Shown: one piece after another, positions 38,674 through 58,910 of the stretch
Layout: each line of letters opens with the position of its first letter
How positions within the stretch are numbered: the first letter of the stretch is position 1
The notes under the pieces: model-generated
Databases searched by the model: none
Told to the model about the DNA's origin: nothing
What the model saw: the letters and a program-made list of their open reading frames with translations, nothing else
DNA from: Aquamicrobium sp.
GTDB taxonomy: Bacteria; Pseudomonadota; Alphaproteobacteria; Rhizobiales; Rhizobiaceae
Assembly (NCBI GenBank): GCA_019739225.1
Contig: JAHHDT010000006.1
Coordinates: forward strand, 189,823 to 253,822
Direction of reading: 5' to 3'
DNA: 64,000 bases
Program-made: the position numbers and the translations under genes

Positions 38674-39075
38674 CTAGAACCGGGTGAAACCCGCCAGCGG
38701 CTTGACGATCCTGCAGCGGCCATCGCGGATCATCTGCGACAGGCCGTCGAGGACTTCGTCGTCGGGACTGCCATAAATTTCGAAATTCTCGACCGTGCAG
38801 TGCTCCATCACCCGCTGGATGTAGGGGTCGGAGAGCTGCCAGTGACGAAGCACGTCCTGAGAATTGCGGTAGAGCTGGAAGCTGACGGCACTCAACTCCT
38901 CCTCGTCGATGAAGGTCTGGACCATCAGCTGGGGCCCGTGGAGGGCAACGAAGTCGACTGCCTCGCGGATCGCGTGGCTGAAGGGTTCAAGGCGGCCTTC
39001 GGCGATCTTCATCCGGTTCCGCATCAATATCTGGTCTGTCATACGCGCCTCCGTGTTCGACACGGAGGGCTTCAT
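38674..39075 (-). CDS. Hypothetical protein, possibly dimeric alpha/beta-barrel (ABM-like); last gene of the sugar string
   Basis: 133-aa ORF with an alternative ATG at 39042 (MTDQILMRNRMKIAEGRLEPF...). The size and pattern suggest an ABM fold but I cannot confirm this. It lies 43 nt downstream of the aldolase gene. Confidence 0.5.
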   Translation of the reverse strand: MKPSVSNTEARMTDQILMRNRMKIAEGRLEPFSHAIREAVDFVALHGPQLMVQTFIDEEELSAVSFQLYRNSQDVLRHWQLSDPYIQRVMEHCTVENFEIYGSPDDEVLDGLSQMIRDGRCRIVKPLAGFTRF

Positions 39076-39118
39076 ACGACCTCAACCGAAGTTGAGGTCA
39101 AGAGGCGCAAGCGGGGCG

Positions 39119-39805
39119 TCAGTTCTTGCCGCGCGGGCGGGCGACGTCGTTCGAGCCTTCGGCCTCGGGTCCGAAGCCGTAGCTCATGCGCTTCATCTGC
39201 GCGATGACGCGTTCCATCTCGTCGTCGGGCAGCACCGGCGGCTCGCCGAGCGCCAGCGCCTGCACATACATGCGCGACAGAGTCTCGACCTCGATCGCCA
39301 GCCACAGCGCGGCCTCGAGCGACGTGCCGAGCGAGATCTGGCCGTGCTGGCCGAGCAGGCAGGCAAGCCGCCCTTCCAGCGCCTCCAGTGCCGCGTCGGA
39401 CAGCGCCTGCGTGCCGAATGTCGCGTAGCGCGCGCAACGGATGGTGGTGCCGCCGGCAACGCCGGTCATGTAGTGAAATGCGGGAATGGTCTTGTGATGG
39501 CAGGCCAGCGTCGTCGCGTAGACCGAGTGGCAGTGCAGCACGACATTGATGTCTTCGCGGGCCCTGAGAATATCGCGATGGAAGCGCCATTCCGAGGACG
39601 GGCGACCACCGACATAGGTGCCGTCGAAATCCATCTCGACGATGTCGTCCGGCGTCATGACGTCGTAGGGCATGCTTGACGGCGTTATCAGGAAGCCGTC
39701 GCCGGAGCGCACGGAGAGGTTGCCCGCCGTGCCCTGGTTGATGTCGCTGGTATTCATGCGGCGGCAGATGGAAACCATCTCCTCGCGCAGCGTCTGGCTG
39801 TTCAT
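39119..39805 (-). CDS. Class II aldolase/adducin family protein (L-fuculose-phosphate-aldolase-like)
   Basis: 228-aa ORF; GTAGNLSVRS, PSSEWRFHRDIL, VVLHCHSVYATTLA, LLGQHGQISLG. Confidence 0.88.
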   Translation of the reverse strand: MNSQTLREEMVSICRRMNTSDINQGTAGNLSVRSGDGFLITPSSMPYDVMTPDDIVEMDFDGTYVGGRPSSEWRFHRDILRAREDINVVLHCHSVYATTLACHHKTIPAFHYMTGVAGGTTIRCARYATFGTQALSDAALEALEGRLACLLGQHGQISLGTSLEAALWLAIEVETLSRMYVQALALGEPPVLPDDEMERVIAQMKRMSYGFGPEAEGSNDVARPRGKN

Positions 39806-39815
39806 CGTCCTGATC

Positions 39816-40133
39816 CTAATCCATGTGGAAAACGCGTTGCAGCGGCACGACGACCGGCTCGTTGCGGTCGCCCACCTGCATGATGTCGGCCATGAAATCC
39901 CACCAGCGCCGGTTGATCTTTGTATGAGGCAGATGGTCCATCGTGTGGTCGTCGGCGCGCACGAGAGTGGCGAAGAGATGGTTCGTTTCCGGGTCGAGCC
40001 AGATCGTGTAGTCCGAGATGCCGGCCTCGCGAAGTGCTGCCAGCATCTGCGGCCATATCTCGTCGTGACGCCGCCGGTATTCTTCAGCTTGGCCGGGGTT
40101 CAGCACCATGCGAAACGCGATCCGTTCGGGCAT
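39816..40133 (-). CDS. rhaM: L-rhamnose mutarotase
   Basis: 105-aa ORF; IAFRMVLNPGQAEEYRRRHDEIWPQMLAALREAGISDYTIW is the typical RhaM/RhaU pattern. Confidence 0.9.
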   Translation of the reverse strand: MPERIAFRMVLNPGQAEEYRRRHDEIWPQMLAALREAGISDYTIWLDPETNHLFATLVRADDHTMDHLPHTKINRRWWDFMADIMQVGDRNEPVVVPLQRVFHMD

Positions 40134-40145
40134 CGTCCGATCCTT

Positions 40146-41435
40146 CTAGATAATGCCGCCGCCGGCCGCGGCGACCGCCGGGCGCTCTGCGGTGACCTTC
40201 GCGCGGTAGCCCGCCGCGCGATAGGCGGACACCGGGTCGATCGCTCCGCCCGCATTCAGCCGCGCCATGGCAAGGATCGGCTCGACATCCGTGCGGTAGG
40301 CTGCCTTTAGCGTCTGCGTGGCCATCAGCGCGTCGTTGTCTTCCTGAAATGCGGTGAGCGCGTCACGATCCACTAGCAGCGCCTGCGCATAGGCGCGCTG
40401 CACTTCCATGGCCGACAGCATCAGGCTCTCGATCGGGTCGGTGACGTTGTGGCTCTGGTCGAGCATGTGGGCGGGGTGGAAGGCTTTGCCGGCGGACAGT
40501 TCCGCATCGACCAGCTCGTTGAAGACGAGGAACAGGCGGTATGGATCGATGGACCCTGCGTCGAGATCGTCGTCGCCATATTTGCTGTCATTGAAGTGGA
40601 AGCCGCCGAGCTTGCCGAACTGGATCAGCCGCGAGACGATCATCTCGATGTTGACATTGGGTGCGTGGTGACCGAGGTCGACGAGGCAGAAGGCCTTTGG
40701 CCCCAGCTCCTTAGCGATGATGTAATTGGTGCCCCAGTCCTGCACCACGGTCGAATAGAAGGCCGGCTCGTACATCTTGTGCTCGGTGAAGAGCCGCCAG
40801 TCGTCTGGCAGGGCGGCATAGATGTCGGCCATCGCTTCCAGATAGCGTGAAAAAGCGCGGGCGAAATTCACCTGGCCGGGGAAGTTGGATCCGTCGCCGA
40901 TCCAGACGGTCAGCGCCTTCGAGCCGAGCGTCCTGCCGATCTCGATACATTCGAGATTGTGTTCCACCGCCTGCCGGCGCACGGCAGCATCGGCATGGCT
41001 GAGCGAGCCGAACTTGTAGGAAAGCTTCTGGTCCGCCGCGTCGGAAAAGGTGTTGGAGTTCATCGCGTCGAAGTCGAGGCCGAAGCGCGCGGCCGCCTGC
41101 TTCAGGCGCTTCGGGTCGGCCTTGTCCCACGGAATGTGCAGCGACACGGTCGGTGTGGCGCGGGTAAGCTGCTGGACGACAGCGCAGTCCTCGATCTTGT
41201 CGAAGATGTCGCGCGGTTCGCCGCCGCCGGGAAAGCGCGCGAAGCGGGTCCCGCCGGTGCCGACGCCCCATGACGGGATCGCGACGCCGAAGGCCTGCAC
41301 CTTTGCCAGCACCGCATCGATGGCGATGCCCCGGCGTGCGAGCTGCTCGCCGAGTGCGGCATAGTCGGATTTCAGCGCGGTCTGCCTGGCCTCGTTTTCC
41401 CGCGAGACGATGTCGGTTTCTATAATCGTTTCCAT
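40146..41435 (-). CDS. rhaI: L-rhamnose isomerase, rhizobial / Pseudomonas stutzeri type (RhaI)
   Basis: ATG at 41435 (ggagga 5 nt upstream) inside ORF 40146..41705 gives 430 aa: METIIETDIVSRENEARQ...IPSWGVGTGGTRFARFP... The xylose-isomerase-like TIM barrel matches the 430-aa RhaI type. Confidence 0.88.
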   Translation of the reverse strand: METIIETDIVSRENEARQTALKSDYAALGEQLARRGIAIDAVLAKVQAFGVAIPSWGVGTGGTRFARFPGGGEPRDIFDKIEDCAVVQQLTRATPTVSLHIPWDKADPKRLKQAAARFGLDFDAMNSNTFSDAADQKLSYKFGSLSHADAAVRRQAVEHNLECIEIGRTLGSKALTVWIGDGSNFPGQVNFARAFSRYLEAMADIYAALPDDWRLFTEHKMYEPAFYSTVVQDWGTNYIIAKELGPKAFCLVDLGHHAPNVNIEMIVSRLIQFGKLGGFHFNDSKYGDDDLDAGSIDPYRLFLVFNELVDAELSAGKAFHPAHMLDQSHNVTDPIESLMLSAMEVQRAYAQALLVDRDALTAFQEDNDALMATQTLKAAYRTDVEPILAMARLNAGGAIDPVSAYRAAGYRAKVTAERPAVAAAGGGII

Positions 41436-41455: not shown

Positions 41456-42301
41456 TCACCATGCGAAAGCCGGCAGCAGAAAGTCGGGCGGCGCGCCGTG
41501 CTCGGCAAACAGCCGCTCCCGCTCCGTGGCGGTGCTGGTTTCCAGTATGCCGGTTGCGACCAGCGCCGTGTTCAGCCCGGCCGCCCCGCCGCCCGCGATG
41601 TCGTGCTCTATGCTGTCGCCGACACAGACGACGCAGCCCAGCGCTGGATTGCCGAGCAGCTCGAGTGCCGCCTCGTAGATGCGGGGGAAGGGCTTGCCGA
41701 TCCACTCCACCGCGCCCCCTAGTTCCGCATAGAGTTCGGCTATCCGGCCGGCACCGAAGCGCGGTCCGACGCTCGTCAGCATCACCTTGTCGGGATTGGT
41801 GCAGAGACAGCGCACGCCACGGGCCGCAGCCGGCTCCAGCAGGCGGCGATAGTGATCGAGATCGTAGCGGTCGCCCTCACTGCCCGACAGAAGCAAGATG
41901 TCGGCGTCAGCACCGCTTTCCGTCACGGTCAGGGGCAGGCCTTCAATCGCCGAGCGATCGCCGTCGCGGGCGATGAGCAGGCAGCGGGCGTTGACGGTAT
42001 CGCTCAGTTCTTCGGCAAGCATGCGCCATGCGACCTCGCCGGACGACAGGAAATGGTCCCAGCTTCCAGGCTCGAAGCCCAGTCGCACCAGCCGCGCCTC
42101 GTTGGGGGCCGAGCGCTTCCCCGAATTGGACAGGAGCAGGCTCTTCTTGTCCGCCGCCTTCAGCCGTGACAGCGCCTCTACAGCGCCGGGATAGGGCGCG
42201 GCGCCATCGTGCAGCACGCCGAACTGGTCGAGCACGAAATAGTCGAACCGGGCTGCGAGTTCGCTGATCCCGGAAAGCGGTTTCGGTGCGGTCTTACTCA
42301 T
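41456..42301 (-). CDS. HAD superfamily subfamily IIA hydrolase (sugar-phosphate-phosphatase-like)
   Basis: 281-aa ORF. FVLDQFGVLHDG (DxxG nucleophile motif) and LLLSNSGKRS are present. Its ATG overlaps the FGGY kinase stop (ATGA). Confidence 0.85.
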   Translation of the reverse strand: MSKTAPKPLSGISELAARFDYFVLDQFGVLHDGAAPYPGAVEALSRLKAADKKSLLLSNSGKRSAPNEARLVRLGFEPGSWDHFLSSGEVAWRMLAEELSDTVNARCLLIARDGDRSAIEGLPLTVTESGADADILLLSGSEGDRYDLDHYRRLLEPAAARGVRCLCTNPDKVMLTSVGPRFGAGRIAELYAELGGAVEWIGKPFPRIYEAALELLGNPALGCVVCVGDSIEHDIAGGGAAGLNTALVATGILETSTATERERLFAEHGAPPDFLLPAFAW

Positions 42302-43575
42302 GCGGGCTCCCGAGCGTGTTCGAGCCCCTTCAGCGCCAGCCGCGCCGCGCCGGCGGCGGCCTGTTCGGAATGTGCCGACAGGAAAGGAACGCCGAGCCTG
42401 CGCTGGCGGATGGCGGTCCAGGCGGCATTGCCGGCGCCGCCGCCGACGCTGCGAACGGAGCGAAGCGCGGGCGCGCCAAGATCGGCGAGGCGGTCATAGC
42501 CGCGTTTTTCGATCGCCGCGATGCCTTCCAGCATGCCCTTCAGGAACGCGGCGTCCGATGCCGGTCTCGGTTCGAGGCGCGGCTGCAAGTTGGCGTCCAT
42601 GACCGGGAAGCGCTCGCCGGGCCCGAGCAGCGGGTAGTAGTCGAGGCCGGTTTCGTCCTGAGAATCGATTCCATCCGAGAGCCGCGCGATCTCATCGCCG
42701 GTGAAATACCGCGCAAGCACCCTGCCGCCCGTGTTCGACGCGCCGCCGGCGAGCCAGAGCTCGTTGATGCGGTGGCTGTAGACGCCGAATTCGGGGGCGA
42801 AGACGGGCTGGTCGCACAGGAGTTTCAGGGTCAGCGTCGAGCCCAGCACGGTGACGCCGTCGCCGGGCTCGCTCGCGCCCGTGGCGATGAACGACGCGCA
42901 ACCATCCGTCGTGCCGGCGACGATGGCGACGTCTTCGCCGAGGCCGAACCGTTGCGCCATGGTTGGCGCTACGGTGCAGACCGGCGTGCCGGGGGCAACC
43001 ACACGCGGCAGCAGTGCCGGCCGCAGACCGGTTGCGGCGATCCATTCGGGCCACCGCTTCGCGATGGGGTCGTAGCCGGTCTTGAGCGCATTGTTCTCGT
43101 CGGTCGTGTCGAAGCAGCCGGAAAGCTGCCCCGCGATCCAGTCGGCCTGATGCAGGACCTTGGCTACGCCTGGGACGCCCTGGAAGATCAGTGCCTTGGC
43201 GAGTCCGGACGTCGCGCCGTGGGCCGCGCTGTCGCGCGCGATGACCGGTGCGATGCGGGCAAGCAGGCCCTCGTCCCCGACCTTGTCGCTGTACATGAGC
43301 GGACGGGCCAGCGGCGTGCCGTCGGCATCGACTGGCAGCAGCGTGCCGGAGGTGCCGTCGACGGCGATCGCGCGCACAGAATATGGCTCGACGGCCATCA
43401 GCACCTGCTCCAGCGCGGTCTCGACGGCGCGCCACCAGAGGGCCGGATCGCGGGCGTCGGCGCCGTGGTCGGTCAGGGATGATGCGCCCTGGGCAACGAT
43501 GTCGAAGGCCGGCGTCATTGCGACCGCGCGCGCGCCGGATGTGCCGAGGTCGATGCCGATGGCGAGGGGCGTCAC
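42298..43575 (-). CDS. FGGY-family carbohydrate kinase (ribulokinase/xylulokinase-like, short form)
   Basis: GTG at 43575 inside ORF 42298..43911 gives 425 aa: VTPLAIGIDLGTSGARAV...GGASNTGG...SVGGGAGNAAWTAIRQ. The upstream part of the ORF translates repeat DNA. Confidence 0.85.
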   Translation of the reverse strand: MTPLAIGIDLGTSGARAVAMTPAFDIVAQGASSLTDHGADARDPALWWRAVETALEQVLMAVEPYSVRAIAVDGTSGTLLPVDADGTPLARPLMYSDKVGDEGLLARIAPVIARDSAAHGATSGLAKALIFQGVPGVAKVLHQADWIAGQLSGCFDTTDENNALKTGYDPIAKRWPEWIAATGLRPALLPRVVAPGTPVCTVAPTMAQRFGLGEDVAIVAGTTDGCASFIATGASEPGDGVTVLGSTLTLKLLCDQPVFAPEFGVYSHRINELWLAGGASNTGGRVLARYFTGDEIARLSDGIDSQDETGLDYYPLLGPGERFPVMDANLQPRLEPRPASDAAFLKGMLEGIAAIEKRGYDRLADLGAPALRSVRSVGGGAGNAAWTAIRQRRLGVPFLSAHSEQAAAGAARLALKGLEHAREPA

Positions 43576-43605
43576 CGGTGACGCTCCGGCTTGATGGCGG
43601 CAGTA

Positions 43606-43738
43606 CCCCCACCCCTCACCCCTCCCCACAGGGGGGAGGGGGATTCTGAACCGGAGACGCTCGGCCGAATCGGTTGCAGTGGAGACGAGGCGCTGACGCC
43701 CACCTCCCCCTTGTGGGGAGGGGTGAGGGGTAGGGGTG
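43606..43738. repeat. Palindromic intergenic repeat element, family B (two inverted 38-bp modules)
   Basis: cccccacccctcacccctccccacaggggggaggggg (43606-43642) and cccacctcccccttgtggggaggggtgaggggtaggggtg (43699-43738) are near reverse complements. Each module is itself a hairpin. Confidence 0.8.
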
Positions 43739-43780
43739 CGGCAGGCGCGCAACTGTCCATGTCGGGTATCCCAAGCACCA

Positions 43781-44836
43781 TCACGCGGACTTTCGCGCCG
43801 CCTTGCGGGCCAGTTCCTGCCGGTATTTCTCGGCGTCCCAATCGGTGAGCTGCAGGTGTTCTTCGGCGGTGAGCACACGCAGGGGCGCGCCGGGCGGGAT
43901 GCGCGCCGCAACGTCGGCTAGACAGCGCGCCATGGCGTCGGCGCTCGGCGTCGCGTCCCCGCGCATCAGCACGCCGATGCCGGGGAACACGATCGAGACC
44001 GGTGTTGTGCCGAGGCGCGCCACGACCGCTTGCGCATCTTCTCCCGGCAGCGCGATGGCCGAGCCCTCGCCAAGGAAGATGACATGGTCCGGATAGAGGC
44101 TGCCGCGCGCCGCGATTTCGGTGCTGGCGGGATCGGTGGCGACGGCATGGGCAGCGTCGCTTTCGGGCAGTCGGAAAGTTGCGACCGCGAGCGCACGCAA
44201 TTTCTCCATGTCGGCGGGGGGCGCGGAGCGCGGTTCGGTGGCGAGCCTTTGCGTGACGTCATTCAACAATGCTTCGGCCGCGTCGACGGTTTCGGCGGCG
44301 ACTACCAGCCCGTGATTGGCCAGCACCAGAACGTCGGGTCTCTTCGAGGAATGCTCCTCAATGGCCAGCGCCAGCGGCAGGCCCGGCCTTGCATAGGGCA
44401 CCAGCGCCCAGTTTAGGCCGTCGAGCCTTGTCGCCAGTTCCGCTTCGCAATCGGTTCGGACCGCAAGGGCTATGGTGTTGACGCAATGCACATGCACGAC
44501 AACGCGTTGCGGCATCAGCGCGTGCACCGTCGTCTCGATCGAGGGCCGCAGGCCGGATGCGCCGAGGCCGGGCACGACGAATTGTTCGGCCCGCTCGGCG
44601 GCCGGGTTCACGGACGAGACGGCGTCGAGCAGCGGTGCGATCTCGACCGGCACCATGATGTCGCGGTCGAGCGCATGGGCGAGCCATGTGCCCGAAGCCT
44701 TGATCCAGAGGATGCCGTCAGCCTTCAGCGAGGTGTTACCGCCGGCGCCCTGGATAAGAAGGGGATCGGAGCCGATCCGTGCCGAAAGCGCCCGCAGGTC
44801 GGCGAGCTCGACCTTTGGTGAAGCCGCTTTTCGCAT
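43781..44836 (-). CDS. Stand-alone class II aldolase-like protein, paralogue of the RhaD N-terminal domain
   Basis: ATG at 44836 inside ORF 43781..45262 gives 351 aa. IQGAGGNTSLKADGILWIKASGT and VVHVHCVNTIA parallel VTNYGGGNTSSKI...VLWVKGSGGD and YVDHMHPDAIIA in the 700-aa RhaD at 56808. Confidence 0.8.
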   Translation of the reverse strand: MRKAASPKVELADLRALSARIGSDPLLIQGAGGNTSLKADGILWIKASGTWLAHALDRDIMVPVEIAPLLDAVSSVNPAAERAEQFVVPGLGASGLRPSIETTVHALMPQRVVVHVHCVNTIALAVRTDCEAELATRLDGLNWALVPYARPGLPLALAIEEHSSKRPDVLVLANHGLVVAAETVDAAEALLNDVTQRLATEPRSAPPADMEKLRALAVATFRLPESDAAHAVATDPASTEIAARGSLYPDHVIFLGEGSAIALPGEDAQAVVARLGTTPVSIVFPGIGVLMRGDATPSADAMARCLADVAARIPPGAPLRVLTAEEHLQLTDWDAEKYRQELARKAARKSA

Positions 44837-45035
44837 GGTGGCGATCCTTTCCCTTGTCTGACTGCCCGTGACGACCGTTGCCGACCGGCGGGCAGTTCGG
44901 GAGAGGCGGTGCCCCTCCCGGGTTCCGACCCCTGGAGCAACGGGCGTTCTGACGAACGCAGTTCCGTTGCTCCAGTTTCGTTTTCCTAGCCGCATTTGTG
45001 CGACGCCAGACAATTCCGCCTGGCTGCAAAATGCT

Positions 45036-46142
45036 CTAGAAGTCGAAGTCGTTGATGTTGTCCTTTGTGAACACGAAGGGCGCGCCAAGAAGGATCTCCG
45101 AGCCGTTGATGACCTGGAGTTCGCCCAGCTTGCCGGCCTCAACCGACGTGGCGCCCGGCTGAAGCGTTCCATCGGCCACTGCGCGCAGCACGTAGGCTGC
45201 CGCATAGCCGAGGTCGACCGGGTTCCACAGCACCACCGACTTGACGCAGTCGGAAGCGACATAGGGCTTCATGGCGTTGGGCGTGGCGAGACCGACAACG
45301 GCGACGTTGCCGCACTGTCCTGCCTGCGTCACCGCATCGGCGGCAGCCGGCGTGGCGACGCTGGTCATGCCGAGTATGCCCTTCATCTCGTCGCCATACT
45401 TGTTGATGAGCGTGTTGGCCTGGTTGAAGGACAGGATGTTGTCTTCCTGAGCCTCGACCGTCTCCAGCCACTTCATGTTCGGGTAGCACGCGCTCTGGTA
45501 GGCCTCCATCTCGGCGATCCAGCGCGCCTGGTTCGGCGTGGTGAAGGTCGAGGTGACGATGGCGAATGCGCCGTCCTCGCCGATCTCGGCCGCCATCGCG
45601 TCGATCATCGACTTTGCGATGCCGTTGAACTCGGCCTGGTTGACGAACCACTGGCGCGCATCCGGCTGCGAATTGGCGTCGTAGCCGACGACATTGATGC
45701 CGGCGGCAAGCGCCTTCTTCAGCACCGGCGAGATCGCGACCGGATCGTTGGCGGCGAACAGGATGCCGTCGACGCCGCTGGTGATGTAGTTGTCGATCAG
45801 GGTGATCTGGTCGTCGATATTGGCGCGGCTGGGGCCGTCGGTCTTGGCATTCATCGTGCCCATCTCGGCGGCCGCTTCGGCGATGCCCTTCGAGGTGGCG
45901 TTGAAGTAGCCGATGCCGACGAGCTTCGGCACGTCGACCACGGTCAGCGTCTTGCCCTTGCGGTCGGGGGCGTCGGTCGGCTCGCCGCCGTCATAGGGAA
46001 CCGCAGCCGCCGTGGCCGCAGCCCCGTCGCAGGCGAGCGGATTGGTCGGCAGGTCGTCGCCGCCGGTCCAGGTCGACTGTGCGTGGCTGAGGCTGGTCGA
46101 AAACGACAAGGCCAGAATTGCAGACAGAACTATCTTACCCAT
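45036..46142 (-). CDS. ABC transporter periplasmic sugar-binding protein, RhaS/LsrB type
   Basis: ATG at 46142 (ggagga upstream). The signal peptide is MGKIVLSAILALSFSTSLSHA. VGIGYFNATSKGIAEAA...VVLWNPVDLGYAAAY resembles rhamnose/AI-2-type binding proteins. Confidence 0.85.
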   Translation of the reverse strand: MGKIVLSAILALSFSTSLSHAQSTWTGGDDLPTNPLACDGAAATAAAVPYDGGEPTDAPDRKGKTLTVVDVPKLVGIGYFNATSKGIAEAAAEMGTMNAKTDGPSRANIDDQITLIDNYITSGVDGILFAANDPVAISPVLKKALAAGINVVGYDANSQPDARQWFVNQAEFNGIAKSMIDAMAAEIGEDGAFAIVTSTFTTPNQARWIAEMEAYQSACYPNMKWLETVEAQEDNILSFNQANTLINKYGDEMKGILGMTSVATPAAADAVTQAGQCGNVAVVGLATPNAMKPYVASDCVKSVVLWNPVDLGYAAAYVLRAVADGTLQPGATSVEAGKLGELQVINGSEILLGAPFVFTKDNINDFDF

Positions 46143-49708: not shown

Positions 49709-49866
49709 GCCCCCTCTCCGCCTCGCTCGCGCTCGGCACCTCTCCCCCACTCCGTGGGGGCGAGGAACCCAAGCTGGAAAAGCGCCGGCATCGCGGCCGC
49801 AGTTCCTCACCCCTGCCGAAGGCGGGGGAGAGGTGTCGAGCTCGAAGAGCGAGACGGAGAGGGGGG
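49709..49866. repeat. Palindromic intergenic repeat element, family A copy 2, inside the sugar gene string
   Basis: The left module is gccccctctccgcctcgctcgcgctcggcacctctcccccactccgtgggggcgaggaaccc. The right module is gttcctcacccctgccgaaggcgggggagaggtgtcgagctcgaagagcgagacggagagggggg. Both are near-identical in core to the copy at 2563-2700. Confidence 0.85.
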
Positions 49867-49873
49867 ACCCGGA

Positions 49874-51307: not shown

Positions 51308-52197
51308 GGCCTATGCTCCGCGGCGACAAGCTCGTGCTTGCGACGCGCGGTCTCCATGCCGACTTCGATGAAGCGCCGCGCGTGGCGCGCCAGCTCGACA
51401 TTGTCGGACCAGAGGTTGCGCCAGATCGCGGTCTTGCGCGACAGGTTCTCGTCGACGATCTCGGACGAGAAGGATTCGAAGGAGACGTCCTTCGCATAAC
51501 CGACTGCGACGAGCGCGTCGAAGATGGCCGGCCAATCGATGCTGCCGGTGCCGAGGAAGCCGCGATGGCTTTCGCCGATATGGAAATAGCCGATCCTGTC
51601 GGCCGCGTGCCTGATGGCAAGCGCAGCGTCCGCCTCCTCGATGTTCATGTGAAACGTGTCGAGGTGCAGGAAGATGTTGTCCGACCCGGAGGTCTCGATA
51701 TAGGCGAGGCCCTGGGACGCGGTGTTGAGCAGGTTGCTCTCGAAGCGGTTGACGATCTCGACATTGAGCGAGACTCCGGCGCGTTTGGCACGCTCGGCGA
51801 CTTCGGCAAGCGTGTGGGCGCTGCGGTTCCAGCCGTCCTTCGTCGGCATCTCCGTCTGCAGGCCATGGCTCGTCTGCAGGATGCCAGCAAGGACATTGCC
51901 GCCAAGATCGCGGGTGAGCGCGACCATGTCATCGAGAATCTCGACGCCGTGTGCGGCGACTGCCTTGTCGGCGTTGGAGATGTCGCCTTCTTCCGGCAGG
52001 CCAATGCTGATCGCCACGCCCAGCCCGTGTCCGGCGATGCGTCTGGCGAGACGGTCGATGTCGACGTCGGCCGGATCGAGATAGGAGAATTCGATCAGGT
52101 CGAAACCTGCTTCCTTCGTCCGCTCCAGTGTGCGGTCGAGCGCCGACTGGTCGGATGCCGCCGACCAGACGAAGGAATGAATGCCGACATGCGCCAT
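51304..52197 (-). CDS. Xylose-isomerase-like TIM barrel protein, ketose 3-epimerase (DTE/DPE) family-like
   Basis: 297-aa ORF. LNVEIVNRFESNLLNTA, HLDTFHMNIEE and GYFHIGESHRGFLGTGSIDW match the metal-binding pattern (E, D, H, E) of free-ketose 3-epimerases. Confidence 0.8.
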   Translation of the reverse strand: MAHVGIHSFVWSAASDQSALDRTLERTKEAGFDLIEFSYLDPADVDIDRLARRIAGHGLGVAISIGLPEEGDISNADKAVAAHGVEILDDMVALTRDLGGNVLAGILQTSHGLQTEMPTKDGWNRSAHTLAEVAERAKRAGVSLNVEIVNRFESNLLNTASQGLAYIETSGSDNIFLHLDTFHMNIEEADAALAIRHAADRIGYFHIGESHRGFLGTGSIDWPAIFDALVAVGYAKDVSFESFSSEIVDENLSRKTAIWRNLWSDNVELARHARRFIEVGMETARRKHELVAAEHRP

Positions 52198-52264
52198 GGT
52201 TCTTTCCCCGTTCGAAATGGAAGGCTTCCGGCCGCGATCGACGCGGCCGGAAAAATACGCGTGG

Positions 52265-53203
52265 TCAGCGGGCGGCGGTCCAGCCTTGATATTCGCCGAG
52301 ATTTTCCGCAGTGATCAGCTTCGGATCGAGCAGGACCGTGGGTTCCGCAGGCTTCTCGCCCGCAAGCACGGCGGCCGCCATGTCAAGCGCCTGCCCCGCC
52401 ATCACATACGGATCCTGCGAGGCCGAGGCCTTGATCATGGAGTTGCCGCTGGAAAGTTCCTTCTCGATGTCCGGCGCGCCGTCGACGGCGGTGATGATGA
52501 ACTCGTTGCGGTTGAGCTGGCGAGCGGCGAGCTGGGCGCCGATGCCGGTCGGATCGTTGATCGCGAACACGGCGTCGATCTGGTCGAAGCGGGTCAACAG
52601 CGCCTGGAAGACCTTCAGGCCGCCATCGCGCGAGCCTTCCGCGTTCTGGTCGTCCGACAGGATCTTGATGTCGGGGTGCTGCGAAAGCACGTTCTTGCAG
52701 CCCTCGACGCGGTCGATGATGGACGACGAGGCCGGGCCGTTGAGGATGACGTAGTTGCCCTTGCCGCCCGTGTGGTCGACCAGATACTGGCAGGCGACCT
52801 CGCCGGCCTTGACGTTGTTGGTCATCACGGTGACGTCGGCGCCCGGCGCGGAGACGTCGAAGGCGGCGACCACGATGCCTGCTGCCTGCGCCTTCTTCAC
52901 CGCCGGTTCGATCGCCTTGGCATCGACCGCGTTCAGCATGATGACGTCGACGCCGGCGGCAATGAAGCTGTCGACCTGCGAGACCTGCTTGTTGAGATCG
53001 TAGTCGGCTGACACCGATGTCACCTCGACGTCGGGATTGATCTTCCTGGCAGCATCCTCGATGCCTTTGATGGTCGCCACGAAGAACGGGTTGCCGAGCA
53101 GGCCGACCGAGATGCCGACCTTTTCGAGATCCTTGGCGGATGCAGGGGCGATGGCAACCGAGGCGAGCGCGGCTGCGCAAAGCAGTTTGGTGATGCACTT
53201 CAT
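52265..53203 (-). CDS. ABC transporter periplasmic sugar-binding protein, RbsB type
   Basis: ATG at 53203 (ggagga upstream) inside ORF 52265..53281. The signal peptide is MKCITKLLCAAALASVAIAPASA, followed by a typical PBP type I sequence GNPFFVATIKGIEDAA. Confidence 0.9.
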   Translation of the reverse strand: MKCITKLLCAAALASVAIAPASAKDLEKVGISVGLLGNPFFVATIKGIEDAARKINPDVEVTSVSADYDLNKQVSQVDSFIAAGVDVIMLNAVDAKAIEPAVKKAQAAGIVVAAFDVSAPGADVTVMTNNVKAGEVACQYLVDHTGGKGNYVILNGPASSSIIDRVEGCKNVLSQHPDIKILSDDQNAEGSRDGGLKVFQALLTRFDQIDAVFAINDPTGIGAQLAARQLNRNEFIITAVDGAPDIEKELSSGNSMIKASASQDPYVMAGQALDMAAAVLAGEKPAEPTVLLDPKLITAENLGEYQGWTAAR

Positions 53204-53281: not shown

Positions 53282-54193
53282 TCATGTTCGTGCTCCTGCC
53301 TGGAGCCTGTAGCGGTCGAGGGCGACCGCGACGATGATGACCAAGCCTTTGATGATGTACTGCCAGATGTCCGAAACACCGGCGAGGATGAGCCCGTTGG
53401 ACAGCACGGCGATGATGAGGCCACCGATCAGCGTGCCCCAGATGGACCCGACGCCGCCGACGAAGCTGGTGCCGCCGAGGATAACGGCGGCGATGGCGTC
53501 GAGCTCGTAGGATTGCCCGAGCTGGAGGCCGTTCGCAGCGTAAAGACGCGCGGCCGACAGAGCTCCGCCGAGGCCGGCGAGCAGACCGGAGACCCCGTAG
53601 ACGAACAGCAGCACCAGAGGCACCTTGATACCGGTGAGCCTCGCAGCCTCCGCGTTGCCGCCGACGGCATAGATCCAGGTGCCCAGCACCGTGCGCCTGA
53701 GCACGAACCACGAAATCACCACGACCAGAAGTGCGATGATGACGAGCCAGGGGACGCCGAGAAAGGTGCCGTTGCCGAGGAAGGCGAACGGCAGATCGGA
53801 ATTGAAGACGGTTGTGTCGTTGCCGAGCAGGCGCGCCACGCCGCGCACCGCCGTCAGCGACCCGAGCGTGACGATGAAGGGTGGCAGCTTCAGATAGGCG
53901 ATGAGCACGCCGTTCATCATGCCGAAGGCGAGACCGGCGAGAATTGCAGCCGGTACGCCGAGCATGCCGATTTCCGGCATCAGCGACACGATCACGGCGA
54001 TCATCGCCGAAGCAGCCAGTATGGAACCGACCGACAGGTCGATGCCGCCCGTGAGAATGACGAAGGTCATGCCGGCGGCAAGAACGATGTTGATCGAGGA
54101 TTGCTGCAGAACGATCAGCAGGTTCGTCTCGGTCATGAAGCGCGGATTGATGACCTGGAAGATCACCGCCAGCAGGATGAGGGCAGGCAGCAT
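53282..54193 (-). CDS. Sugar ABC transporter permease (RbsC type); N-terminus uncertain
   Basis: 303-aa ORF; TGGIDLSVGSILAA and GGTSFVGGVGSIWGT. The same frame stays open and sensible upstream (ARQARFRVAFAALG), but no ATG, GTG or TTG lies there. An ATG at 54272 that overlaps the ATPase stop (ATGA) is in another frame. Confidence 0.85.
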   Translation of the reverse strand: MLPALILLAVIFQVINPRFMTETNLLIVLQQSSINIVLAAGMTFVILTGGIDLSVGSILAASAMIAVIVSLMPEIGMLGVPAAILAGLAFGMMNGVLIAYLKLPPFIVTLGSLTAVRGVARLLGNDTTVFNSDLPFAFLGNGTFLGVPWLVIIALLVVVISWFVLRRTVLGTWIYAVGGNAEAARLTGIKVPLVLLFVYGVSGLLAGLGGALSAARLYAANGLQLGQSYELDAIAAVILGGTSFVGGVGSIWGTLIGGLIIAVLSNGLILAGVSDIWQYIIKGLVIIVAVALDRYRLQAGART

Positions 54194-54268
54194 GCCGAGT
54201 GCGGCGAATGCAACGCGGAAGCGCGCCTGCCGGGCGCCGTCGCTCGGTGCGGTGCTTGCTCTTGTCAG

Positions 54269-55792
54269 TCATGTGCCTGACGCTCCGGTGGCAAGTTCCA
54301 TGATCTCTTCCTGGGTGAACCGTCGGTCTGCGCGGGCGGATACTTCGCCGACGATCTTACCGTCGCGCATGACAAGCACGCGGTCGGCCACACCGATGAT
54401 TTCCGGCAGCTCGCTGGAGATCATCAGGATGGCGATGCCGTCCTTGGCGAGGTCGTCGATGATGCGGTAGATTTCGGACTTGGCGCCGACATCGACGCCG
54501 CGCGTCGGCTCGTCCAGGATGACGACCCTGGGCTTGGTCTCCAGCAGGCGGGCAAGCAGCACCTTCTGCTGGTTGCCGCCCGACAGCGAACCGACATTCA
54601 TGCGCGTCGAACTGGTGCGGATCGACAGATTCGACACCGCGCGCGCGGCGCGTTTGTCGGCCACCGCAAAGTCCCGGAAGCCGAGCCGCCGCGCATCGCG
54701 CGCCATGACACCCATGTTGATATTGTCGGCGATCGACATGTCGAGGAAGAGACCGAGTTCCCTGCGATCCTCGGTGAGATAGGCGATGCCCGCTTCCAGC
54801 GCGGCTCCCGGCGAGGCGATCTCCACCGGGCGGCCGCCAAGCTCCATGGTTCCGGCGGTCTTGCGGTCCGCCCCGTAGATCAACCGGGCAAGCTCGGTGC
54901 GCCCGGAACCGATCAGCCCCGAGAGCGCCAGGATCTCGCCCTCGTGCAGATCAAGCGAGCAGTCTTTCACCAGCTGCTCGGCGGACAGGCCGCGGACCGA
55001 AAGCGCGACCGGCCGCTGCGCACCGGGCGCCTGATGCTCCTTCTTGTAGAAAGAAGAGATGTCGCGCCCCACCATCATCGAGACGAGGCGCGGCGCATCG
55101 ACCTCCTCGCGGCCCAGCGTGCCGACATAGCCGCCGTCGCGCAGCACGCTGACGCGGTCGGCGAGCTGATACACTTCTTCCATGCGGTGGCTGATGTAGA
55201 TGATGGCGATGCCCTGCGCCTTGAGCCCGGCGATCACCTCGAACAGGCGATCGGTCTCGCGCGAGGTGAGCGATGTCGTCGGCTCATCCATGACGATAAT
55301 GCGCGCATCGGTGGACAGGGCCCGCGCGATCTCGACGAGTTGACGTTCGCCGAGGGAAAGCTGCGAAACCCGGGTGCGGGGCGAGAAGGTCAGACCAAGC
55401 CGGTCGATGATCGGCTTCGCGCGCGTCATCATCGCGCCGGCATCGACGACGCCGAACCGGCGCGGCTCGTTGCCGAGGAAGATGTTCTGCGCAACGGTCA
55501 GGTTCGGCGCGAGCGACAGCTCTTGATAGATGACCGCGACGCCGTTCGCGCGGGCCTTGATCGGGTCGCCGGTGGTGACGGGCTGCCCGTCGATGAGGAT
55601 TTCGCCGCCGGGATCGGGCCGGTAGGCGCCGGACAGCATCTTCATCAGCGTTGATTTGCCGGCCCCGTTCTCGCCCATCAAGGCATGCAGTTCGCCGGCG
55701 TGGACCGTCAGTGAGACGTTGCGCAATGCCCGCACGACGCCGAACGTCTTGCTGATGTCGCGCATTTCCAGGACGGGCGCGGCGCCGGCCAT
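54269..55792 (-). CDS. Sugar ABC transporter ATP-binding protein (duplicated ABC domains)
   Basis: ATG at 55792 inside ORF 54269..55981 gives 507 aa: [41 protein letters not shown]. It starts 1 nt after the DeoR gene stop. Confidence 0.92.
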
Positions 55793-55793: not shown

Positions 55794-56573
55794 TCAGCCT
55801 CCAAGCCCGTTGGCGGAGACAACGCAGAGGCTGACGCCCGCGTTCTCCAGCATCTTGGCATGCTGGTCGCTGATGCCGTCATCGGTGATGAGGGTCGCGA
55901 TCCTGGAGAGCGGCAGGGCGACGTTGCGGGCGTGTATCGAGAATTTGCGGCTGTCGGCCAGCACGACGATCTGGTCGACATTCATGCTGAGTTCCTGGAT
56001 CGAGCGCACCATCAGCGGGTGCGATTCCAGGAGGCCGTCGGGGCTGATCCCCTGTGCGCCGACGAAATATTTGGACGCGAAAAAGGATACGGGCTGGGCA
56101 GGAGAATAGATGACGCGCGGCTCGCGGTGCAGCTCGCCGCCGGCGACGGTGAGGCTGCACTTGCCGTGATCGCCCAGATAGGCTGCCAGCGGCATCGAGT
56201 TGGTGAACAGGCGGATGTTGCGCTCGGCGAGCTTGACGCCGAGGTGAAAGCAGCTCGAGCCGCCATTGACGATGACGGAGTCGCCGTCGGCCACCATTGT
56301 CGCGGCGCGATCGGCGATCTGGCGCTTTGCGTCGACCGCGAGGTCACGGTTCTCGTCATAGGGCCGGGCGAATGCGGTTGCCTGTGCCGCGCCGTCGAGC
56401 GCGGAGATGCCGCCATAGACCTTCCGCGCGGCGCCGGAGCCGTCGATCTTGTCGATGTCGCGCCGGATGGTGGCGGCCGAGACGCCGAGGCGCTCCTGCA
56501 GGTCGCGCACGGAGGCAAACGGCCTGTCACGCAGGATCTCGATGATCTGCTTGTGGCGGCTCAGGTCGCTCAC
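55794..56573 (-). CDS. DeoR/GlpR family transcriptional regulator (RhaR-like position)
   Basis: 259-aa ORF. The HTH is [35 protein letters not shown], followed by a DeoR C-terminal sugar-binding domain. It is divergent from rhaD. Confidence 0.9.
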
Positions 56574-56662
56574 GATTCCTCCTCCCGTGGCGCCGCGAAA
56601 CGCGTCGTATGAGTTAAGTTACGCAAAATGACGCCGCACGCAAGCGGATAGTGACAATCTTT

Positions 56663-56708
56663 GCTCATATCGCAATGCAAACAAAGGCTATTGCGACGCA
56701 ATATGAGC
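56663..56708. promoter_or_regulatory. Imperfect 46-bp palindrome with TTGCGA(T/C) repeats, candidate DeoR operator
   Basis: gctcatatcgcaat-N13-attgcgacgcaatatgagc. A third ttgcgat copy lies at 56723-56729, next to a ttgaca-N17-tgaatt promoter-like sequence (56728-56756) facing rhaD. Confidence 0.4.
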
Positions 56709-56807
56709 GACTTCACTCTTTTTGCGATTGACAAACCGCATGTGTTGGCCTGAATTGCCGGCAGCGAAGCGGCACTCCCTTCGTGCCGCGCCGGGAGGAG
56801 TGTGGAG

Positions 56808-58910
56808 ATGGTCGAGAACGGGGCCGCGCGGCTCGAAAACCTTTGGGACGACGCCAGGGCGGCTGCGATGAGCGAGCCGGAACGGCTGGTCTACCGCTCG
56901 AACCTGCTCGGGTCCGACAAGCGCGTGACCAACTATGGCGGCGGCAACACCTCTTCCAAGATCACACAAAAAGACCCACTGACAGGCGAAGACGTCGAGG
57001 TGCTGTGGGTCAAGGGATCGGGCGGCGACAGCGCCTCGATCAAGCTCGACGGTTTCGCAACCCTCTACATGGACAGGCTGAACGCGCTTAAGGGGCTCTA
57101 TCGCGGGCTCGCGCATGAAGACGAAATGGTCGGCTACCTGCCGCATTGCACCTTCAACCTCAATCCACGCGCGGCCTCGATCGACACGCCCCTGCACGCC
57201 TTCGTGCCGCATCGATATGTCGATCACATGCACCCCGACGCGATCATCGCGATCGCGGCTGCCAAGGATTCCGAAGCGCTGACAAAGAGGATCTTCGGCG
57301 ATGACATCGGCTGGCTGCCCTGGAAGCGGCCGGGCTTCGAGCTCGGCCTGTGGCTGGAAAAATTCTGCCGCGAGAATCCGCAGGCCAAGGGCGTCGTGCT
57401 GGGAAGCCACGGACTGTTTACCTGGGGCGACACGCCGAAGGACTGCTACGCGACCACCATCGACACCATCAACCAGGCGATCGCCTGGTTCGAGAAGGAA
57501 GCGGCGGACAAGCCGGCCTTTGGCGGACCGGTGGCCAGCTCCCTACCGGCTGCGGAGCGCCGGGCGATTGCCGTGCGGCTAATGCCGCGCATACGCGGCA
57601 TGATCTCGGCGGACGGTCCGCGCAAGGTCGGGCACTTCGACGATTCCGATACAGTGCTCGAATTCGTCAACTCCGGCGAGCTGCGGCCGCTCGCGGCGCT
57701 CGGCACATCCTGTCCCGATCATTTCCTGCGCACCAAGATCCGGCCGCTGGTGATCGAGTTCGATCCCGTGCGACCGGATGTCGATGCCGTGGTCGCGGCG
57801 CTGCCCGGCGCGCTCGATGAATACCGCGCCGGCTACCGGGCCTATTACGAGCAATGCAAGCATGCGGATTCGCCTGCCATGCGCGACCCCAATGCGGTGG
57901 TGTACCTGATGCCAGGCGTCGGCATGTTCACATTCGCCGCCGACAAGGCGACGGCGCGCATTTCCGGCGAGTTTTACGTCAACGCCATCAACGTGATGCG
58001 CGGCGCTTCATCGGTGTCGAGCTATGTCGGCCTGCCGGCGCAGGAGGCGTTCGACATCGAATACTGGCTTCTCGAAGAGGCCAAGCTGCAGCGCCTGCCG
58101 AAGCCCAAGTCGCTGGCTGGCCAGATCGCCTTCGTGACCGGCGGGGCGGGTGGCATCGGCAAGGCAACCGCGACACGGCTGTTGCGCGAGGGCGCATGCG
58201 TCGTGCTCGCCGATATCGACGAGCCGGCGCTGGGCAGTGCCCGTGACGAATTCGCCAAGGCCTTCGGAGCCGATTTCGTACGCACCGTGAAACTGGACGT
58301 GACCGACGAGACGGCAGTCGCCTCGGCCTATGCTCGTGCCGCGGTCGACTATGGCGGCGTCGACATCCTCGTCTCCAACGCCGGCATCTCGTCCTCGGCG
58401 CCGATTGACGAAACGGAACTGTCGATGTGGGACCGCAATATGGATATTCTCGCCAAGGGGTATTTCCTCGTCTCGCGGGAAGCGTTCCGCACCTTCAAGC
58501 AGCAGGGCGTGGGCGGCAACATCGTGTTCATCGCCTCGAAGAACGGACTGGCCGCCTCGCCGAACGCGGCGGCCTATTGCACCGCCAAGGCTGCCGAAAT
58601 CCATCTCGCGCGCTGCCTGGCGCTGGAGGGCGCGGAACACCAGATCCGCGTCAACACGGTCAATCCGGATGCGGTGCTGCGCGGCTCCAAGATATGGACC
58701 GGCGAGTGGCGCGAACAGCGTGCGGCCGCTTACGCGATGGAGCCGGATCAGCTCGAGGAGCATTACCGCAAGCGCTCCATGCTGAAGCGGTCGGTGCTTC
58801 CCGAAGACGTCGCCGAGGCGGTGTACTTCCTGGCATCCGAGATGTCGGCGAAATCGACCGGCAACATCATCAATGTCGATGCGGGCAACGCACAGAGTTT
58901 CACCCGCTAA
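56808..58910 (+). CDS. rhaD: Bifunctional rhamnulose-1-phosphate aldolase / short-chain dehydrogenase (RhaD, rhizobial type)
   Basis: ATG at 56808 (gggaggag 8 nt upstream) in ORF 56802..58910. The N-terminal class II aldolase-like half has NYGGGNTSSKI. The C-terminal SDR half has VTGGAGGIGKA...YCTAKAA. Confidence 0.9.
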   Translation: MVENGAARLENLWDDARAAAMSEPERLVYRSNLLGSDKRVTNYGGGNTSSKITQKDPLTGEDVEVLWVKGSGGDSASIKLDGFATLYMDRLNALKGLYRGLAHEDEMVGYLPHCTFNLNPRAASIDTPLHAFVPHRYVDHMHPDAIIAIAAAKDSEALTKRIFGDDIGWLPWKRPGFELGLWLEKFCRENPQAKGVVLGSHGLFTWGDTPKDCYATTIDTINQAIAWFEKEAADKPAFGGPVASSLPAAERRAIAVRLMPRIRGMISADGPRKVGHFDDSDTVLEFVNSGELRPLAALGTSCPDHFLRTKIRPLVIEFDPVRPDVDAVVAALPGALDEYRAGYRAYYEQCKHADSPAMRDPNAVVYLMPGVGMFTFAADKATARISGEFYVNAINVMRGASSVSSYVGLPAQEAFDIEYWLLEEAKLQRLPKPKSLAGQIAFVTGGAGGIGKATATRLLREGACVVLADIDEPALGSARDEFAKAFGADFVRTVKLDVTDETAVASAYARAAVDYGGVDILVSNAGISSSAPIDETELSMWDRNMDILAKGYFLVSREAFRTFKQQGVGGNIVFIASKNGLAASPNAAAYCTAKAAEIHLARCLALEGAEHQIRVNTVNPDAVLRGSKIWTGEWREQRAAAYAMEPDQLEEHYRKRSMLKRSVLPEDVAEAVYFLASEMSAKSTGNIINVDAGNAQSFTR

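Follow-up and report, generated by a model that had tools for sequence, protein, structure and literature searches.

We analysed a window of 64,000 nucleotides (nt) from an Aquamicrobium species (GenBank assembly GCA_019739225.1, contig JAHHDT010000006.1, positions 189,823 to 253,822 of the forward strand), within which positions 38674 to 58910 hold a long string of genes for sugar uptake and breakdown. With a confidence slightly better than even, we read this locus as a conserved composite catabolic operon, here called type C, in which an L-rhamnose and an L-pentulose regulon are fused, rather than as a new branch of 6-deoxyhexose catabolism. The combination is conserved and uncharacterised in many sequenced genomes, and it is made of known parts, most of which have already been named by homology-based annotation. 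A first, sequence-only reading had described the locus as a complete rhizobial rhamnose gene set with three inserts: module X, with a second importer and an epimerase; module Y, with an aldolase-fold protein, a kinase and a phosphatase; and module Z, with a further aldolase and a small ABM-like protein. This picture of a rhizobial rha locus with inserts did not survive a comparison of synteny, in which the regulator and the kinase proved orthologous to those of a separate locus that is not a rha locus.

The gene content itself was upheld. Open reading frame (ORF) listing, translation and assignment with Pfam and NCBIfam gave 17 co-directional genes on the minus strand, from 56573 down to 38674, together with a divergent rhaD; the ORFs lie at, or a few codons away from, the positions first proposed for them, and the proposed folds were borne out. 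The order is regulator (R), X block, kinase (K), ATPase (T), two permeases (P and Q), binding protein (S), lalA, rbtB, rbtC, rhaI, rhaM and a fucA-like gene, with rhaI lying apart from rhaD. As had been supposed, a single regulator gene is visible within the 18 kb string. When curated NCBIfam cut-offs were taken as the standard for equivalog-level assignment, RhaD, RhaI, RhaM and a HAD protein of family TIGR01459 scored above them, and the two ATP-binding cassette (ABC) systems, the two kinases, the two smaller class II aldolase-fold proteins and a TIM-barrel epimerase were placed at the level of fold or family only.

Only RhaD, RhaI and RhaM are orthologues of the canonical rhizobial rhamnose system. 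The rhaD gene (56802-58910, plus strand; all other genes of the locus are on the minus strand) encodes a bifunctional rhamnulose-1-phosphate aldolase and short-chain (lactaldehyde) dehydrogenase, which scores 1227 bits against NF006189 (cut-off 634) and 1082 bits against TIGR02632, carries the Pfam domains Aldolase_II and adh_short, and is 73% identical to the canonical RhaD of Shinella and 86% to the Aminobacter copy. The rhizobial-type L-rhamnose catabolism isomerase RhaI (40146-41435; TIGR02629, 866 bits against a cut-off of 647) is 77% identical to canonical Shinella RhaI, and the L-rhamnose mutarotase RhaM (39816-40133; TIGR02625, 106 bits against a cut-off of 99.6, and Pfam rhaM) is 56% identical to its Shinella counterpart. 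With scores above the curated cut-offs, the family membership of RhaI and RhaD, on which the sequence-only reading depended, thus holds, as does that of RhaM.

The claim of a complete rhizobial rha set stands for these three proteins but not for the regulator, the kinase and the RhaS-like binding protein, which are paralogues of the canonical RhaR, RhaK and RhaS. The DeoR-family regulator, encoded by the first gene of the string (55794-56573; HTH_DeoR and DeoRC), is 80-85% identical to the regulators of one class of related loci (type A, described below), 73-77% to those of a second class (type B), 64% to that of the Shinella type B locus and 38% to canonical Shinella RhaR. A similar gradient was seen for the RhaK-family sugar kinase (49874-51307; FGGY_C_2, 185 bits; PDB match 3H6E, E 6e-65), at 76-82% for type A kinases, 58% for the Shinella type B kinase and 33% for canonical Shinella RhaK. 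According to the title of a study cited in PMC3870299, the RhaK of R. leguminosarum is needed for transport. The second importer follows the kinase gene and comprises a CUT2 ABC ATPase with two ABC_tran domains (48160-49668; 85% identical to that of Aminobacter, 48% to canonical RhaT), two BPD_transp_2 permeases (47159-48160 and 46204-47148; 81% and 90% identical to Aminobacter) and a RhaS-family binding protein (45036-46142). The last scores 241 bits against the RhaS model TIGR02637, below the equivalog cut-off of 342, and is 35% identical to canonical Shinella RhaS; its best PDB matches are the rhamnose-binding proteins 5BQ3 and 4KVF. An autoinducer-2 (Lsr) system was considered for this region and rejected: the same binding protein reaches 150 bits against LsrB compared with 241 against RhaS, LsrF and LsrK are both missing, and the ABM gene does not belong to the conserved set.

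An alignment of the module Y aldolase was scanned against one genome per species, which gave 80 loci onto which all 18 window proteins were mapped; counts of locus types were taken from the resulting best-hit maps. In type A (15 of the 80 loci), RhaD is divergent from DeoR, the kinase, the second ATPase, permeases P and Q, the second binding protein, the class II aldolase, the FGGY kinase, the HAD protein, RhaI, RhaM and the FucA-like aldolase. This arrangement occurs in at least six genera, among them Aminobacter, Mesorhizobium and Nitratireductor as well as the marine Ahrensia and Labrenzia, which were looked up separately. Type B (about 43 loci, almost all in Mesorhizobium) runs from the epimerase through the X binding protein, X permease, X ATPase and kinase to DeoR, divergent from the aldolase, FGGY kinase and HAD genes; it is self-contained, with unrelated flanks and with no RhaI, RhaD, RhaM or FucA within 10 kb. 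Type C, the order of the window, was found at three loci, in M. retamae and two Bradyrhizobium species, and in further copies in Neoaquamicrobium sediminum (L086, 95% nucleotide identity) and in L092 and L093. Twelve loci held the aldolase, FGGY and HAD trio without either importer, some with a FucA-like gene, as in Ensifer, and seven held a lalA-like gene alone. In a search of plasmids, those of Aminobacter carried the string without module X and without the ABM gene, at about 80% nucleotide identity. On a Shinella plasmid, a canonical rhaR-S-T-P-Q-M-K / rhaD-rhaI locus adjoins a second locus of type B (a run of DeoR, kinase, X ATPase, X permease, X binding protein and epimerase genes with a divergent trio of aldolase, FGGY kinase and HAD genes), and it is the regulator and kinase of this second locus to which those of the window are orthologous. 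M. loti DSM 2626 carries a type B locus and M. loti R88b an ery locus; for M. loti MAFF303099, the supplement of PMC3870299 lists a canonical rha gene set. These records suggest that type B has a role outside the use of rhamnose.

Types A and B have in common a core of DeoR repressor, RhaK-family kinase, encoded directly upstream of a CUT2 ABC ATPase gene, and lalA-rbtB-rbtC. As the regulator and kinase of the window are closest to type A and its X block is like that of type B, type C is type A with a four-gene X block inserted between regulator and kinase; start/stop overlaps are kept at both edges of the block. On our reading, the importer and epimerase block of a DeoR-controlled type B locus was inserted between the regulator and kinase genes of a sister type A locus. 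The gene order goes beyond chance: of the 80 loci, from independent genomes, 18 show the same order, Ahrensia and Labrenzia add further cases of the type A order, and the recurrent fusion of these parts, in three arrangements across genera, argues for their cooperation in vivo. The arrangement was said not to have been characterised, and this agrees with our literature searches, which found no publication treating types A, B or C as units; the same arrangement does recur in several related soil bacteria, none of them found characterised.

The extra modules had not been recognised by the sequence-only reading, yet counterparts can be named for them: module Y is lalA-rbtB-rbtC and the FucA-like gene of Z the counterpart of fucA1, both known from S. 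meliloti, and the epimerase of X is an orthologue of the enzyme in PDB 3VYL. In a protein search of plasmid records, we found the module Y genes, in the same order, in the erythritol/adonitol/L-arabitol locus of S. meliloti. There, eryA, a 2-hydroxyacid dehydrogenase gene, a FucA-like gene, eryB, a class II aldolase gene and an FGGY kinase gene are followed by an unannotated stretch that encodes the HAD homologue and by eryC, eryR, tpiB and rpiB. In S. meliloti, lalA-rbtABC are needed for the use of adonitol (ribitol) and L-arabitol, and not of erythritol, and fucA1 is dispensable (PMC3599248, for the former citing Geddes and Oresnik 2012); the same source describes an independent lalA and rbtBC locus in all three Mesorhizobium genomes studied and places an extra M. 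loti lalA copy between eryB and eryC. At that position the ery locus of M. loti R88b has one otherwise unnamed gene, for an Aldolase_II protein, from which it follows that lalA is the class II aldolase gene and, by order, that rbtB is the FGGY kinase gene and rbtC the HAD gene. A Burkholderia plasmid carries the same four genes alongside eryA- and eryB-like genes. In S. meliloti Ak57 (L087, 11330-11818), the rbtC homologue aligns over its first 163 residues only and is unannotated; it may be a pseudogene there, or the gene table of the plasmid may be incomplete. The 3.7-Mb record in question bears the label pSymB although it is as large as a chromosome. The pentitol locus proper was rejected as a description of the string, which has no eryA, eryB, rbtA or mpt genes, the nearby DAO protein being a true GlpD.

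The lalA homologue (43781-44836) encodes an Aldolase_II protein with an extra C-terminal domain of about 140 residues, 59% identical to the product of the S. meliloti gene at the lalA position. In an alignment of LalA homologues, the catalytic Glu, three His and the Asn, Ser and Gly residues of the phosphate site are invariant. The structural model (mean predicted local distance difference test, pLDDT, 88.6) shows a class II aldolase fold over residues 1 to about 210, and the alpha/beta domain that follows (residues about 210-351), which is confidently modelled, found no match in a structure search of the PDB. When LalA was compared with RhaD by profile, residues 9-188 only were aligned, at 30% identity, and no alignment to the corresponding C-terminal part of RhaD was obtained. 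A further lalA-like class II aldolase, 38% identical, lies on the E. coli IncR plasmid NZ_CP145712.1 (L089, 2809-11771), among genes for GtrA, an NTP-transferase, a glycosyltransferase, a kinase-like protein and, next to it, a HAD hydrolase; this context looks biosynthetic and hints that the LalA subfamily of aldolases may also work as epimerases or isomerases.

The rbtB homologue (42298-43575) encodes a ribulokinase-like kinase with FGGY_N and FGGY_C domains, 61% identical to the S. meliloti copy. Its nearest solved homologue is PDB 5HTN (E 7e-96), the Synechococcus putative sugar kinase SePSK, whose ATPase activity was stimulated most by D-ribulose among five substrates (PMC4880283). The rbtC product (41456-42301) scores 285 bits against TIGR01459 (cut-off 104) and is 56% identical to the product of the S. 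meliloti gene at the rbtC position. Its proposed identity as a HAD-IIA phosphatase is borne out as to family, but the second Asp of the DxD phosphatase motif is missing: motif I reads DQFGV rather than DxDGV, DQ(F/Y)GV is present in 80 of 81 homologues, and the general acid/base Asp+2 is replaced by an aromatic residue, as in haloacid dehalogenases. Two other kinds of chemistry that were considered, a kinase/dehydratase/HAD logic like that of methionine salvage and tetronate (OtnC) chemistry, drew no more than weak family scores.

The FucA-like class II aldolase (39119-39805; Aldolase_II, 181 bits) is encoded in nearly all type A and type C loci. It stays under the curated cut-offs (NF005984, 218 against 264 bits; TIGR01086, 200 against 400) and shares 48% identity with S. 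meliloti FucA1 and 53% with the copy from Burkholderia. Its translation, as read by eye, shows the motifs GTAGN, PSSEW, HCH, FHYM and QHG, which may correspond to the catalytic Glu, the three His, the Tyr and the phosphate-site residues of E. coli FucA.

Module X begins with a CUT2 ABC ATPase with two ABC_tran domains (54269-55792; 69-80% identical to the ATPase of type B loci), followed by an RbsC-like permease (53282-54272; BPD_transp_2, 246 bits against the RbsC model), an RbsB-like periplasmic binding protein (52265-53203; Peripla_BP_4) and a ketose 3-epimerase (51304-52197). The best NCBIfam model of the binding protein is RbsB, scored far under its cut-off, and its best PDB match is 4RWE (E 9e-89); per component, the importer is 78-92% identical to that of type B. 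Relative to the N. sediminum copy, which is 95% identical, and to all other orthologues, the permease gene carries a +1 frameshift at codon 5, caused by an extra G at 54259. Its orthologues begin at an ATG that overlaps the stop codon of the ATPase gene, whereas in the window this ATG (54272) is out of frame and the intact frame spans 53282-54193. The extra G may reflect a sequencing error, an inactivating mutation or a restart of translation at the ATG at 54193.

The epimerase aligns over residues 1-297 with residues 1-297 of the M. loti L-ribulose 3-epimerase (PDB 3VYL, E 7e-149) and is 74-79% identical to the epimerase of Mesorhizobium type B loci. The M. loti enzyme has relative activities of 100% on L-ribulose, 20% on D-ribulose, 2.3% on D-allulose and 1.7% on D-fructose (PMC8167858). 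The score of the window protein against the NCBIfam D-psicose 3-epimerase model (NF051856, 172 bits against a cut-off of 300) is consistent with an enzyme that prefers pentuloses rather than psicose. A D-allose/D-psicose pathway was considered and disfavoured in view of the roughly 2% relative activity of the orthologue on D-allulose. Taken together, the specificity of the epimerase, the nearest characterised kinase and the genetics of S. meliloti point, for modules X and Y, to pentuloses and not to rare hexoses. The idea of a multi-substrate regulon for deoxy- or rare hexoses is thus retained as to its several substrates but not as to a rare-hexose or 6-deoxyhexose role.

These assignments suggest how a fused operon could work. 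In the rhamnose branch, the RhaS-like importer would take up L-rhamnose or a close analogue, for example L-lyxose or 6-deoxy-L-talose; RhaM and RhaI, acting as their families do, would turn the aldose into the 2-ketose; and the RhaK-family kinase would produce the ketose 1-phosphate. RhaD, again as expected of its family, would split L-rhamnulose-1-phosphate into dihydroxyacetone phosphate (DHAP) and L-lactaldehyde and oxidise the aldehyde, so that the branch would end in DHAP and L-lactate. In the other branch, the RbsB-like importer would bring in a pentose or pentulose, and the 3-epimerase would interconvert L-ribulose and L-xylulose, a specificity shown in vitro for the M. loti orthologue, and feed the kinases. 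Pentulose phosphates would be handled by LalA, whose catalytic core resembles that of RhaD, together with RbtB, which is like a ribulokinase, RbtC and the FucA-like aldolase, along one of two routes. Either L-xylulose-1-phosphate or D-ribulose-1-phosphate would be cleaved to DHAP and glycolaldehyde, or, in a route like that of AraB and AraD, L-ribulose-5-phosphate made by RbtB would be converted to D-xylulose-5-phosphate. LalA would then either cleave L-xylulose-1-phosphate, with RhaD-like stereochemistry, or act on L-ribulose-5-phosphate as AraD does, and the FucA-like enzyme would cleave D-ribulose-1-phosphate, or L-fuculose-1-phosphate if RhaI also accepts 6-deoxy-L-talose. The D-xylulose-5-phosphate endpoint is mildly favoured because type B is self-contained and has no aldehyde dehydrogenase, and the cleavage role of LalA is mildly favoured because of its homology to the catalytic core of RhaD.

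A more specific proposal, which we put forward tentatively and consider somewhat doubtful, is that the core of DeoR, RhaK-family kinase, LalA, RbtB and RbtC forms, together with the L-ribulose 3-epimerase, an undescribed pathway by which L-ribulose and L-xylulose, as free L-pentuloses, and related 3R/3S ketoses would be broken down. In it, LalA would be a class II aldolase or 4-epimerase of new specificity, and RbtC, lacking Asp+2, would have a task different from plain phosphate hydrolysis. If true, the ketose 3-epimerase, so far known only for its use in making rare sugars, would for the first time have a role in the physiology of a cell, and the pentitol genes of S. meliloti would gain a biochemical footing. 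The locus joins three fields that have been unconnected, namely rhizobial rhamnose catabolism, a trait of nodule competitiveness, the lalA-rbtBC pentitol genes, which are defined by genetics, and the M. loti L-ribulose 3-epimerase used in rare-sugar production. It also offers testable candidates for what the epimerase acts on in nature and for what LalA, RbtB and RbtC catalyse.

Several observations weigh against the reading as a fused rhamnose and pentulose regulon. Our literature searches found no experiment on the window locus or on types A and B, and in the literature found the biochemical reactions of LalA, RbtB and RbtC are not assigned. Both binding proteins score under every equivalog cut-off. 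With its frameshifted permease, the X importer may be inactive in this strain, and the missing Asp+2 makes a simple phosphatase role for RbtC doubtful. Type B has neither an aldose isomerase nor a polyol dehydrogenase that could supply its free pentulose. Finally, the three gaps of about 200 nt with strong hairpins, described below, could interrupt co-transcription.

The same enzymes could instead make up a broad rare-sugar scavenging regulon, close to the multi-substrate idea of the sequence-only reading, that would cover pentuloses, hexuloses and 6-deoxyhexuloses, with a 3S to 3R ketose epimerase and two kinases supplying ketose 1-phosphates for cleavage by RhaD/LalA-type (4S) and FucA-type (4R) aldolases. 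Such a regulon would make use of the three class II aldolase-fold enzymes of two stereochemical types, the free-ketose epimerase, the rhizobial-type isomerase, whose relatives are reportedly promiscuous, and the two importers. We nevertheless regard it as unlikely: on D-allulose and D-fructose, the relative activity of the M. loti epimerase is only about 2%, there is no sign here of the use of hexuloses or 6-deoxy-ketoses, and the stereospecificity of the aldolases is drawn from family resemblance only.

It is also conceivable, and in our view distinctly improbable, that this is a plain L-rhamnose operon whose additional genes manage by-products or toxic intermediates, for example through relief of sugar-phosphate stress or the handling of lactaldehyde. 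The HAD-IIA protein AraL of the B. subtilis ara operon, for which a role in relieving sugar-phosphate stress has been proposed, offers an analogy. Type A and C loci hold a complete route of RhaM, RhaI, kinase and RhaD together with a RhaS-family binding protein, and in type A, across six genera, the additional genes always accompany the rha genes. However, at about 43 Mesorhizobium loci the core of regulator, kinase and lalA-rbtBC is self-contained, with no RhaI, RhaD or RhaM within 10 kb, and the core locus lies beside a canonical rha locus in Shinella; M. loti MAFF303099, too, lists the canonical set (PMC3870299). The use of pentitols by S. meliloti requires lalA-rbtBC (PMC3599248), and the orthologue of the epimerase is specific for pentuloses.

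The junctions within the string had been described as overlaps of 1-4 nt or short gaps, which applies to most of them: there is a 1-nt gap between the DeoR and X ATPase genes, 4-nt overlaps join the X ATPase and X permease, the epimerase and kinase, and rbtB and rbtC, a 1-nt overlap joins the second ATPase to its permease, and seven other junctions measure 10-78 nt. It does not apply to three long gaps, at 49669-49873 (205 nt), 44837-45035 (199 nt) and 43576-43780 (205 nt). The first of these, between the kinase and second ATPase genes, is a palindromic element (minus strand, inverted repeat I24) that forms a hairpin of about 165 nt with a predicted RNA folding energy of -134.9 kcal/mol (z -6.9). 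A second palindromic element of about 165 nt (minus strand, inverted repeat I1, with 43-nt arms that are 88% complementary; -115.9 kcal/mol, z -5.6) occupies the gap between lalA and rbtB. Both are rich in GGGGAGGGG/CCCCTCCCC. The close relatives L086 and L093 have them; the copies in Aminobacter and Bradyrhizobium lack them, and their genes overlap or abut at both sites. Since the corresponding junctions are tight in Bradyrhizobium type C, both elements are lineage-specific insertions into a tightly packed operon; they may serve as attenuators or as mRNA-stability elements. The spacer before lalA is 199 nt in the window compared with 91-103 nt in Aminobacter and Bradyrhizobium (91 nt in Bradyrhizobium type C). 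Directly 3' of the X binding-protein gene, a GC-rich hairpin of 12 bp with a short T-rich tail (52225-52253) fits the higher expression of the binding protein that is usual in such operons. No match inside the string was found in an Rfam scan, or in a scan for sigma-70-like promoters, a scan that is weak for a GC-rich alphaproteobacterium.

That the string is instead a row of independent neighbouring operons (X, the second importer, lalA-rbtBC and rhaIM-fucA) with no shared regulation or function is very unlikely. Such a division would be suited by the separate occurrence of each block elsewhere, by the three long gaps, of which two contain hairpins of high predicted stability, and by the hairpin after the X binding-protein gene. 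Against it, the 18 kb contain a single regulator gene and different genera keep the same order. Two of the large gaps are due to palindromic elements inserted in this lineage, and the one before lalA shrinks to about half its length in other copies. The promoter scan, too, weak as it is for alphaproteobacteria, found no sigma-70-like promoter inside the string.

For the fused operon, a single DeoR repressor would work at the divergent region between its own gene and rhaD (56574-56801). In an alignment of 14 orthologous intergenic regions, we observed conserved promoter-like blocks here together with a palindrome, TCATATTGC...GCGATATGA. The half-site TCATWKYGC clusters only in this divergent promoter region, with three of its four matches in the window at 56623-56706, and we infer from this a candidate operator from which DeoR would repress.

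The 122-residue ABM-like protein at the end of the string, which the sequence-only reading had counted with the set, is a strain-variable add-on that lies outside the conserved genes. Its gene occupies 38674-39042 (the ORF extends to 39075; the start is probably at 39042), and the protein matches no Pfam family at E <= 0.5, the Pfam ABM model included. The family is nonetheless real, with 182 homologues, most of 122 residues and some named ABM by UniRef. In the N. sediminum locus the gene is missing as part of about 430 bp; it is present in L093 and stands in an unrelated context in Sinorhizobium. Just beyond it lies a match to the alphaproteobacterial small RNA ar35 of Rfam (38240-38349, plus strand; 62 bits, gathering score 45), close to where relatives have a gene for a cold-shock protein. 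Further out, a tRNA-Gly(GCC) gene (31260-31334) is followed by about 4.7 kb (31395-36098) that the N. sediminum relative lacks. With genes for a PAS/HWE histidine kinase, a response regulator and a LysR regulator, this stretch has the look of a small island next to a tRNA gene. On the other side, 144 nt past rhaD, a glp-type glycerol locus on the plus strand (59055-62815) holds a true glpD (NF008899, 800 bits) and genes for two UgpC/MalK-type ATPases. Between rhaD and this locus we saw no DeoR/GlpR gene that would belong to it, and it is unrelated to the conserved cluster.

Among known systems, the closest is the canonical rhaRSTPQUK - rhaDI locus of R. leguminosarum and S. meliloti (Richardson and Oresnik; PMC9025865, PMC3870299), in which a bifunctional RhaD is likewise divergent from a DeoR-led operon. 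Common to both are orthologous RhaD, RhaI and RhaM (73%, 77% and 56% identical to the Shinella set), a kinase of the RhaK family and a CUT2 importer composed of an ATPase, two permeases and a binding protein of the RhaS family. The window differs in that its kinase comes first and its binding protein last, in that rhaI and rhaM lie in the long operon and not with rhaD, and in eight further genes; its RhaS-like protein stays below equivalog level, its regulator and kinase are not orthologues of RhaR and RhaK, and the operon order is not the canonical one. The rhamnose branch would presumably work as in the canonical system.

With lalA-rbtB-rbtC and fucA1 of S. meliloti, the window shares the same three genes in the same order (59%, 61% and 56% identity) and the FucA-like aldolase (48%). 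Unlike there, the trio is without its partners eryA, eryB, rbtA and mptABCDE and is joined to rha genes, a RhaK-family kinase and CUT2 importers. The type B locus that carries the L-ribulose 3-epimerase gene in M. loti provides a full-length orthologue of the window epimerase and a similar adjacent RbsB-like importer. In M. loti, however, the X block comes after DeoR and the kinase, divergent from lalA-rbtBC and with no rha genes nearby, whereas in the window it stands between DeoR and the kinase of a string that contains rha genes. Work on the M. loti enzyme has dealt with its use in biocatalysis, and the literature covered gave no role for it in the physiology of the cell.

In the araABDL genes of B. 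subtilis, the FGGY kinase AraB, the class II aldolase-fold 4-epimerase AraD and the HAD-IIA phosphatase AraL are encoded next to one another in a pentose operon, so the same three folds are adjacent there as in module Y, and the conversion of L-ribulose through L-ribulose-5-phosphate to D-xylulose-5-phosphate provides a model. In contrast to that operon, LalA is nearer to the N-terminal domain of RhaD than to AraD and has an extra C-terminal domain, RbtC is without Asp+2, and there is no AraA-type isomerase. The E. coli rha regulon, for its part, acts on L-lyxose via L-xylulose-1-phosphate, a route for which mutations are needed. As in that regulon, a single sequence of isomerase, 1-kinase and class II aldolase steps could handle a 6-deoxyhexose as well as an L-pentose, although the families are unrelated (RhaA, RhaB and RhaD as against RhaI, RhaK and RhaEW) and the window has dedicated extra enzymes.

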